From positions 1,180 through 65,179 of the forward strand of contig CAZKVK010000001.1 of NCBI GenBank assembly GCA_964556195.1: 64,000 nt of DNA, given 5' to 3'. Made by a program: the position numbers and the translations under genes. The notes beneath the pieces are model-generated. The model saw only the letters and a list, made by a program, of their open reading frames with translations. It was not told where the DNA came from and made no database searches. Within the stretch, counting starts at the first letter, position 1. Every line of letters begins with the position of its first letter. Source of the stretch: an uncultured Candidatus Poseidoniales archaeon. GTDB taxonomy: Archaea > Thermoplasmatota > Poseidoniia > Poseidoniales > Thalassarchaeaceae. Positions 26,979 through 28,495 of this stretch are shown in pieces.

Positions 26979-27524
26979 ATGACCTACACACATCCTCGGG
27001 TTAACATGGAACCGGACATTACAGTCTCTACCGTAGTCAAAACTCACGAGGATATTTTCCTAGTTGAGGGGTCGGTCAAGTCATTATTTCCTGATTGGGA
27101 TTGTGAAATTACTGCGGGCAAGAAAAATTCTCCAATTAGCCGCGAAGCTAGCGAACTTTCTGGGAAATCTAAATCCCTATCCTTAGTAATCGAGAATTGC
27201 TCGAAAAATCGGATACTAGATACTGCATTTGATGCGATGACGATGAATCTACAAGATGATTATACTCACTTTCAATTATCTAGACAGGCTGCATTTGTAG
27301 GGAAAGTCGCCTTTGTCGTTGATGAAATTCCGCTTGGAGGAGTTATGGAGGTTTCTTTGCAGGGTGAAGGTCTAGGTTTGTGGATTGAGCAACTAACATG
27401 GCATGAGGGAAGACATAACGTTCCCAGAAGTCTAGGTGACGACCTGCGTATGGAGCAAGATGGCACTCCATCCGAGTGGTTTGACAATAAAGGAAGAAGA
27501 ACAATGAATTCACATCATGAATGA
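26979..27524 (+). CDS. hypothetical protein (181 aa)
   Basis: ORF starting 3 nt after the divergent neighbour's start codon. No motif recognised. Confidence 0.45.
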   Translation: MTYTHPRVNMEPDITVSTVVKTHEDIFLVEGSVKSLFPDWDCEITAGKKNSPISREASELSGKSKSLSLVIENCSKNRILDTAFDAMTMNLQDDYTHFQLSRQAAFVGKVAFVVDEIPLGGVMEVSLQGEGLGLWIEQLTWHEGRHNVPRSLGDDLRMEQDGTPSEWFDNKGRRTMNSHHE

Positions 27525-28495
27525 GGGATTCCTGATTTCATCCACTCTTCAATCAGAGGTTCGTCAGCGGGTAGCCACTTGACCGAATTTAGAGAGGATT
27601 GGTCTAACCAACTAATCAAATCGTGTTCCTTAGGGTCAACCGATTGCGGGTCAACAATACCACAATCCCAGATGTACAAGTTGACAAAGCGATCCTCGTA
27701 CTCATGTTTTACAAAAGCAACCCTTCGATTGGGATTTACTTTGACTCCCAATTCCTCGGAAATTTCTCTGCGTAAAGCCTCCTCCTCCGATTCACCGACA
27801 TCTATCTTTCCACCAGGGAATTCCCACCATCCAGACCAGACATCATCGGGAGGTCTTCTACAGGCCAGTATCCGCCCCTGAGAATCAAACAAAAGTGCAC
27901 CTACGACTTCTAACCTCGGTTTTGTTGCGAGTGTTTGGATAAGGCGCGTAACAACTTCTATTTGTCTTGTAAATGATACTTCAGTTTCAGGTGGTAAATG
28001 TACAAAAATTGCTGGAGTTTTTTCGGCCGCTGAATATATCGAATTTAATGTCCTATAGATTGTTTCATTACAGACAAATTCTCCTGCTGATTCACTCCAA
28101 ATAACATCATCTTCATTTTCAAATTCCTCGTCTAAAACATGCTTTGAAACTGTTGTTTCGTACCTTGATGGGCACCCCTCAACCACGACCTCATCAACCA
28201 ATCTTCCAGAGTTGTCTGCAATTCTGAAATTAGATTGGTTGTGAGCCCAACGTTCCAATGAAATTATCTTTCGTGATTCGGCTAAGCCCAATTGAATGAT
28301 AGCGTCAAATTTCTCTCCCTGATTAATTAATTCAGATACTCTTCGTGATCCCCCCTTATCACATGTCAATAATTCCGTTACTAATGAAATTCCAGTTATC
28401 CCATTAGATTCTACAGCCATCATTATTTTACTCGAAATATTCTCAATGTGCCCTCCGAATGCTGGAAAAGAAGTCAGTAGAACTCTCGGTTGCAC
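27515..28495 (-). CDS. Fusion protein: pyroglutamyl-peptidase I (C15, Pcp) domain + NUDIX hydrolase domain
   Basis: N-terminal [29 protein letters not shown], catalytic Cys block [12 protein letters not shown] and His block IFVHLP match Pcp (Glu-Cys-His triad family C15). C-terminal Nudix box [30 protein letters not shown]. Confidence 0.75.
   Translation of the reverse strand: [326 protein letters not shown]

Follow-up and report, generated by a model that had tools for sequence, protein, structure and literature searches.

Pyroglutamyl-peptidase I (Pcp, MEROPS family C15) and the MutT and NudG types of Nudix hydrolase both belong to well-studied protein families. The canonical Pcp enzymes, such as those of Pyrococcus furiosus (1IOF), Pyrococcus horikoshii (1IU8), Bacillus amyloliquefaciens (1AUG) and Fervidobacterium islandicum (6LTQ), are stand-alone proteins of approximately 200-220 amino acids (aa). 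MutT and NudG (Orf135), such as Escherichia coli MutT 1MUT, E. coli NudG 2RRK and MutT 5X1X, also stand alone. We analysed a stretch of 64,000 nucleotides (nt), hereafter the window, from an uncultured Candidatus Poseidoniales archaeon of the Thalassarchaeaceae, a family that belongs to this order (positions 1,180 to 65,179 of contig CAZKVK010000001.1, assembly GCA_964556195.1). A gene on its minus strand, at 27515..28495, combines the two families in one chain. In contrast to the canonical enzymes, the terminal helix of its Pcp domain continues straight into a MutT/NudG-like Nudix domain, which makes up the C-terminal half of the two-domain protein.

An earlier interpretation of the window, made without database searches and referred to here as the sequence-only reading, had proposed a single Pcp-Nudix open reading frame (ORF) at this position, and both Pfam matches were indeed obtained on one uninterrupted ORF. 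It had also known of no description of the domain combination. This is consistent with our literature search, in which no paper describing the Pcp-Nudix combination was found, yet the architecture is abundant in public databases. What is new, as far as our literature search shows, is the fusion of a C15 peptidase to a MutT/NudG-type Nudix domain and its order-wide conservation in the Poseidoniales, and the finding is probably best described as a new domain architecture in which two well-known, ordinary housekeeping activities are placed on one chain.

Domain architecture and structure model

The fusion gene comprises 326 codons, from a GTG start at 28495 to a TGA stop at 27515-27517, and inspection of the ORF list and the sequence revealed no internal stop or frameshift. 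Pfam, PDB matches, Foldseek and DSSP assignment of an AlphaFold2 model delimit the Pcp domain to aa 1-192 (27920..28495, minus), whereas Pfam, PDB profile matches and Foldseek place the Nudix domain at aa 193-326 (27518..27919, minus). PF01470 (Peptidase_C15) matched aa 4-169 (64.1 bits, gathering score 22.7, E 2.4e-17), and PF00293 (NUDIX) matched aa 196-313 with 70.6 bits against a cut-off of 21.1 (E 1.6e-19). The Nudix half was also matched by PF14815 (NUDIX_4) with 66.7 bits against a cut-off of 35 (E 1.9e-18). The Pfam support for both C15 and NUDIX is far beyond chance. All motifs quoted in the sequence-only reading were recovered, namely FPAFGG at aa 10-15, the segments at aa 70-86 and aa 136-147 that hold E81 and C142, IFVHLP with H166 at aa 163-168, and the Nudix box region at aa 222-251.

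The sequence matches of the peptidase half in the PDB were the Pcp structures 1iu8, 1iof and 6ltq. E81, C142 and H166 align to residues 79, 142 and 166 of the P. furiosus enzyme 1iof, which we take to be its catalytic triad (Glu79/Cys142/His166). E81 would be the catalytic Glu (codon GAA, 28253..28255), C142 the catalytic nucleophile (TGT, 28070..28072) and H166 the catalytic His (CAT, 27998..28000), all on the minus strand. F10, F13, F140 and V141 are also present and presumably form the hydrophobic pocket for pyroglutamate (pGlu), equivalent to Phe10, Phe13, Phe142 and Val143 of B. amyloliquefaciens. F13 is invariant, and the conservation of F10 and of V141 is 90% or higher. Foldseek aligned the peptidase half with 1x12, 2eo8 and 3lac over 202-203 columns (chains of 204-208 residues), with target-normalised template modelling (TM) scores of 0.80-0.83. 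Judged by the model, the complete Pcp alpha/beta fold is present, including a predicted last helix at aa 175-191.

Compared with the four canonical Pcp enzymes named above, the peptidase half shares the fold over the domain of about 200 residues, the positions of the Glu-Cys-His triad, a GxxPFGG-like first strand and the ER(x)AxN, DNxG and (F/Y)(V/I)CN motifs, at an identity of 28-30%. It differs from them in a shorter loop after the catalytic His and in two invariant motifs of its own that are atypical of canonical Pcp, V-D46-E-x-G49-S50 (VDExGS) and D94-N-S-G-R98 (DNSGR). On these sequence features the peptidase half can be placed firmly in C15 as a divergent but clear member, at a level that does not establish its exact specificity.

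The Nudix half contains a perfect Nudix box (GX5EX7REUXEEXGU) at aa 229-251 (27743..27811, minus), which reads in translation G229-KIDVG-E235-SEEEALR-R243-E244-I-S-E247-E248-L-G250-V251. The closest relatives of this half in the PDB were MutT 5x1x (E 4e-31 with the family profile), NudG 2rrk and other MutT-like proteins, and Foldseek aligned it to 3r03 and 3grn with target-normalised TM scores of 0.85-0.88. Its identity to E. coli MutT (the sequence of 1mut) is 34%. With MutT and NudG it shares the fold of about 130 residues, the Nudix box and a C-terminal (W/F)-x-P-A-(D/N)-x-P motif. Of the two MutT residues that we take to be responsible for base recognition, Arg23 corresponds to the conserved R214, and Asn119, presumably the one that recognises 8-oxoG, corresponds to D311 in a 'PAD' motif as in NudG and 5x1x. 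The half can thus be assigned with confidence to the MutT/NudG type by sequence, again without fixing the exact specificity.

The PADLOC profile PDC-S07 (PDLC04899) matched aa 194-320 with 129.7 bits (E 1.3e-38), which might point to an anti-phage defence gene. However, the E. coli MutT control reached 130.7 bits with this profile, which likewise matched all MutT-like proteins tested, and the locus is conserved housekeeping with no defence island. PDC-S07 is a generic MutT profile that flags ordinary MutT-like genes as defence candidates, and the nearly equal score of the Nudix half speaks for its MutT-like character. The defence reading was rejected on the basis of the MutT control, and we consider it extremely improbable.

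An AlphaFold2 model of the fusion, built on an alignment of 36 sequences (A2, see below), had a mean predicted local distance difference test (pLDDT) value of 93.7, a predicted TM score (pTM) of 0.81 and zero residues below 70. According to DSSP assignment of this model, the last Pcp helix (aa 175-191) is followed by the first Nudix strand (aa 194-203) with no linker between them. The pTM value suggests a defined relative orientation of the two domains, which probably pack rigidly in the predicted structure. No PDB chain spanning both halves was found by Foldseek, the best query-normalised TM score being 0.53.

Distribution, conservation and evolutionary history

Among 5.8 billion protein clusters searched, 453 matched. 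The best 120 of these were 46-99% identical to the fusion protein, and all but two short, probably partial sequences carried PF01470 together with PF00293. These 120 sequences originate from ENA, NCBI, JGI and Logan assemblies. In an exhaustive HMMER search of 1.84 billion representatives, approximately 50-60 clusters at the 50% level covered both domains, down to 28-30% identity. Cluster look-ups assigned them to Poseidoniaceae, Poseidoniales, Thalassarchaeaceae or Thermoplasmatota archaea. The gene was also found in 13 GTDB species genomes, all of them Marine Group II, Thalassarchaeum, Poseidoniales or Thermoplasmatota metagenome-assembled genomes. The same fusion, which the sequence-only reading had proposed to look for in other genomes, thus occurs across the Poseidoniales, with members from the Poseidoniaceae as well as the Thalassarchaeaceae (Marine Group IIa and IIb). 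By the same evidence, the window derives from a Marine Group IIb archaeon. Both domains lay in one reading frame in 34 of 46 metagenome loci. A merge of two adjacent genes by an assembly or sequencing error, named in the sequence-only reading as an outcome that would undo it, is refuted by the same ORF in hundreds of independent assemblies and can be regarded as practically impossible.

Conservation was assessed in three alignments of the window protein with its relatives: A1 (19 sequences, minimum identity 41%), A2 (36 sequences, minimum identity 46%) and A3 (27 cluster representatives with identities down to 25%). E81, C142, H166, G228, G229, E235, R243, E244, E247 and E248 were invariant in all three. 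Accordingly, a regulatory pseudo-enzyme domain was rejected, as both catalytic sets are invariant; the suggestion that one of the domains is purely regulatory is ruled out by the same intact, family-wide residues. Orthologues were consistently more similar in the Nudix half than in the Pcp half (for example 66% vs 47%, 57% vs 41% and 48% vs 31% identity), which indicates that the Nudix half is under strong selection and is no decaying appendage. Neither half is degenerate or merely regulatory.

Some orthologues at the syntenic locus of the fusion consist of the peptidase only. Such Pcp-only genes were found in L015-L022 (the P0145 clade), L053 and L055, with the match at about 5001-5590 in most loci. 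Their products, approximately 195-200 aa long, stop precisely at the boundary between the domains and have an intact triad, indicating that the Pcp half works without the Nudix half. A bootstrapped neighbour-joining tree of peptidase domains (Kimura distances, 100 replicates) grouped all Marine Group II-type Pcp domains, fused and Pcp-only, in one clade in 100 of 100 replicates. Within this clade the Pcp-only P0145 paired with the fusion P0122 in 96 of 100 replicates (55.7% identity), and the Pcp-only proteins were monophyletic in none. The deeper nodes were weakly supported. The scattering of Pcp-only orthologues among the fusions implies repeated loss of the Nudix half, and the simplest history suggested by the tree would be an early fusion in the Poseidoniales followed by such losses. 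The Pcp-only protein P0261 branches basally in this clade and might reflect the state before the fusion.

One singleton fusion, P0179 (L061:72-1052), falls outside the fully supported Marine Group II clade. It is encoded on a single 2.1-kb contig, has more canonical Pcp motifs (LPVSY, LGQAESR) and is followed by a different downstream gene, encoding a cNMP-binding protein. By its tree position and context, it may be an independent fusion. In a neighbour-joining tree of Nudix domains, including those fused to PxpA, ThiE and Pcp, the branches were long and the Marine Group II sequences did not stay together.

The lineage-wide distribution makes the fusion a clean marker gene for the Poseidoniales.

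Probable function and alternative readings

Marine Group II comprises uncultured archaea that rank among the most abundant in the plankton and presumably feed on proteins and peptides. The reading of the fusion protein that we favour, with moderate confidence, is a bifunctional cytoplasmic housekeeping enzyme of these Poseidoniales with two autonomous activities. The N-terminal Pcp domain would act as a cysteine peptidase (Glu81-Cys142-His166) that cuts the blocking N-terminal pyroglutamate off peptides and releases 5-oxoproline. Since pGlu blocks aminopeptidases, its removal would matter to a peptide-feeding organism. The C-terminal domain, with its predicted Mg2+-binding box (E235, R243, E244, E247 and E248), would cleave oxidised or non-canonical (deoxy)nucleoside triphosphates to the monophosphate and pyrophosphate. 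The two domains would thus catalyse separate reactions on separate substrates. The fusion probably arose early in the Poseidoniales and may have been kept since it ensures the co-expression of two sanitising or salvage activities. It does not appear to be obligatory, as several lineages seem to have since lost the Nudix half. The domain identities, active sites, conservation, synteny and Pcp-only orthologues on which this reading is built were observed; from them we infer the substrates, the autonomy of the halves and the reason for their retention. As a single chain, the protein offers a simple recombinant target for studies of pGlu-peptide deblocking and nucleotide-pool sanitising in Marine Group II.

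The autonomy of the halves is argued by the Pcp-only orthologues together with the promiscuity of the Nudix module. The MutT-like Nudix module (PF00293 + PF14815) was found fused to ThiE/TenI-like proteins, PxpA, MTHFS (5-formyl-tetrahydrofolate cycloligase) and the biotin ligase BirA, and further to NAD-synthase-like, HhH-GPD (MutY-like, with an intact Nudix box), PEMT and DUF309 proteins and to further Nudix domains in tandem repeats (examples other than PxpA: P0378, P0385, P0392, P0395, P0397, P0400, P0404, P0268, P0187, P0201, P0172, P0190 and P0188). These partners indicate that the MutT-like Nudix domain serves as a promiscuous add-on module. Like the Pcp-Nudix protein, the PRK08999-type Nudix + ThiE/TenI-like, PxpA-, MTHFS-, BirA-, PEMT- and DUF309-Nudix proteins carry the same Nudix subtype in an end-to-end fusion with an unrelated enzyme. 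The Nudix domain is C-terminal, as here, in most of them, the exceptions being the PRK08999/ThiE-like and BirA types. In the Pcp-Nudix fusion the partner is a C15 peptidase, and this fusion is spread lineage-wide in one archaeal order rather than sporadically.

Several observations weigh against two autonomous activities of canonical specificity. The first of them favour a functional coupling of the halves in one pathway, in which the Nudix domain would act on a compound or by-product that is linked to a nucleotide and tied to pyroglutamate or 5-oxoproline, or would take part in looser damage control, as in a 'Rosetta stone' fusion. The fusion is kept across the entire order with both active sites invariant, the linker has zero length and the pTM is 0.81, all of which may hint at such a coupling. 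The singleton P0179 shows that a Pcp-Nudix fusion also exists beyond the Marine Group II clade, in other genomic surroundings. The best argument is that an unrelated 5-oxoproline enzyme, the 5-oxoprolinase subunit PxpA (LamB_YcsF), also occurs with a C-terminal MutT-like Nudix domain (P0390 at L014:6001-7131; also P0387, P0388 and P0391), and that in L014 (72% GC) the PxpA-Nudix gene directly follows pxpB (CT_C_D) and pxpC (CT_A_B), so that a second 5-oxoproline enzyme is fused to such a Nudix domain within a pxpB-pxpC-pxpA operon. MTHFS, another Nudix partner, is a metabolite-repair enzyme as well.

On the other hand, Pcp-only orthologues at the same locus show that the peptidase does not need the Nudix half, and the same Nudix type is carried by many functionally unrelated partners, against which the single coincidence of PxpA carries little weight. 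The four fusions with PxpA, all high-GC sequences, are close relatives of each other and look like a single lineage, and the Nudix tree gives no resolution. A literature search for 5-oxoprolinase together with Nudix gave no mechanistic link, only a review that names them separately, and we know of no pyroglutamyl metabolite linked to a nucleoside diphosphate. Pcp, PxpA, MTHFS and MutT can all be grouped under damage control or salvage, but this is a classification, not a mechanism. The coupling of pGlu removal to the hydrolysis of a nucleoside-diphosphate-linked substrate, which the sequence-only reading had put forward, finds no support, given the Pcp-only orthologues and the unrelated Nudix partners. 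Overall, we consider functional coupling of any kind unlikely. A stronger version, in which MutT-like Nudix domains have an unrecognised role in pyroglutamate or 5-oxoproline metabolism and the Pcp-Nudix protein is a coupled two-step enzyme, is one to which we assign a small chance. On that version, 5-oxoproline metabolism would involve an intermediate, by-product or regulator linked to a nucleotide, which the Nudix domain removes. Coupled halves, unlikely as they are on present evidence, would point to a previously unrecognised connection of nucleotide hydrolysis with 5-oxoproline metabolism.

The other contrary observations concern the substrates. Both halves scored well below all equivalog cut-offs: the Pcp models of NCBIfam gave 80.3 vs 199 bits (NF009676), 78.1 vs 274 and 73.4 vs 201.75, and the MutT/NudG models gave 66.5 vs 97.9 (TIGR00586), 71.3 vs 148 (NF008044) and 78.4 vs 156 (NudG, NF007834). 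In addition, Gln71 of Bacillus Pcp is replaced by Leu71 in the fusion family, which has its own VDExGS and DNSGR motifs, and the residue at the position of MutT Asn119 is the NudG-like Asp311. The RNA pyrophosphohydrolase BdRppH is among the structural neighbours. One or both domains might thus have a non-canonical specificity, the C15-like domain acting as a deacylase or amidase on another lactam or N-blocked substrate and the Nudix domain as a hydrolase of pyrimidine nucleoside triphosphates, of NAD caps or RNA, or of dinucleotides, instead of as an 8-oxo-dGTPase. Against this, the S1 pocket (F10, F13, F140 and V141) and the triad are conserved, and the closest matches in sequence and structure are bona fide Pcp and MutT/NudG enzymes. 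We judge such a departure from the canonical substrates to be rather improbable, slightly more so than a coupling of the halves, and retain the bifunctional housekeeping enzyme as the preferred reading.

Gene start, annotation and genomic neighbourhood

The position of the GTG start is shared by 9 of 13 related loci, and the more distant loci L010 and L012 have an ATG at the equivalent position. Residues 1-20 of the fusion, which form the first strand of the peptidase, are conserved (T8, F10, F13 and N19). The shared start position and the conserved first 20 residues support the long start giving 326 aa. Many public gene calls of close relatives (P0001, P0008-P0043 and others) begin at an internal Met and are 302 aa long. 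They lack the first 24 residues (28424-28495 in the window), including the conserved strand with F10, F13 and N19. The public names cover one half of the protein ('NUDIX domain-containing protein', '8-oxo-dGTP diphosphatase' or 'pyrrolidone-carboxylate peptidase') or read 'Euryarchaeota archaeon', even though both Pfam domains are already precomputed on the public-database sequences. Our finding thus corrects a public annotation in which one half is named and the N-terminus is often truncated.

A gene for a 181-aa archaeal protein lies next to the 3' end of the fusion gene, at 26979..27524 on the plus strand (ATG at 26979, TGA at 27522-27524). The two genes had been described in the sequence-only reading as divergently coupled, with start codons 3 nt apart. 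This was mistaken, as the genes converge and share the last 10 nt at their 3' ends (27515-27524). The 181-aa protein has a weak PF01877/PRK00447 'RNA binding' match, and its gene holds the same position in all Marine Group II loci examined.

On the other side, 85 bp upstream of the GTG start, a divergent gene on the plus strand (about 28581..28910) encodes a small hydrophobic putative membrane protein of approximately 109 aa. By tblastn it was found at its place in every related locus examined, with 52-88% identity, and it had no Pfam or PADLOC match. The mechanical ORF listed for it, 28446..28910, runs 45 codons too far and overlaps the start of the fusion gene; in distant loci, the conservation of the small protein begins at about residue 24-58 of this ORF. 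The 85-bp divergent intergenic region (28496..28580), read from its sequence, presumably holds the promoters of both flanking genes. In the orientation of the fusion gene, GGTGG precedes the GTG start by 4-8 nt and an AT-rich stretch, TGAATGAATATGA, is located around -58.

The gene block around the fusion is constant in all Marine Group II loci examined, with fusion identities from 79% down to approximately 32%. In the orientation of the fusion it consists of a 161-aa gene (same strand), the small membrane protein (opposite), the Pcp(-Nudix) gene, the 181-aa PF01877-like gene (opposite), a 310-aa zinc-ribbon gene (same), DnaJ (same) and a gene for a 793-aa protein (opposite). The wider neighbours encode RNase HII, a class I Glu/Gln-type tRNA synthetase, ribosomal protein S15, a DUF5591 protein and a UPF0176/rhodanese protein. 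Within this housekeeping neighbourhood, which shows no operon logic, the fusion gene is effectively monocistronic. Since the neighbours are unrelated housekeeping genes and arranged in convergent and divergent orientation, the context carries no functional information, and a function derived from an operon or gene context was rejected. No paralogue of either domain was found elsewhere in the window by tblastn of each domain.

Some further observations were made on the surrounding genes. The UPF0176_N + rhodanese protein at 28829-29740 (plus strand) may, from its domains, be a TrhO-like tRNA hydroxylase. Its listed ORF overlaps the gene of the small membrane protein by 82 nt; the UPF0176_N/rhodanese domain begins only at residue 36, which places the probable true start at a GTG near 28919. 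The more distant loci L009-L012 lack the gene at that position. The 793-aa ORF at 22471-24852 (plus strand) has no Pfam match and, as listed, overlaps the DUF5591 gene at 20865-22910 (minus strand) by approximately 440 nt. Its N-terminal residues, about 80 in number, align separately in many related loci, often overlapping the rest, which renders the true start or structure of this gene uncertain. Elsewhere in the window, the minus strand holds four very large ORFs at 2251-7041 (1596 aa), 30256-36009 (1917 aa), 39595-43830 (1411 aa) and 45247-54780 (3177 aa). Asp-rich repeats of the DxDxDG type, which resemble calcium-binding thrombospondin type-3 repeats, fill the 1917-aa protein, and a guess from these repeats is that the four ORFs may encode secreted or surface proteins.

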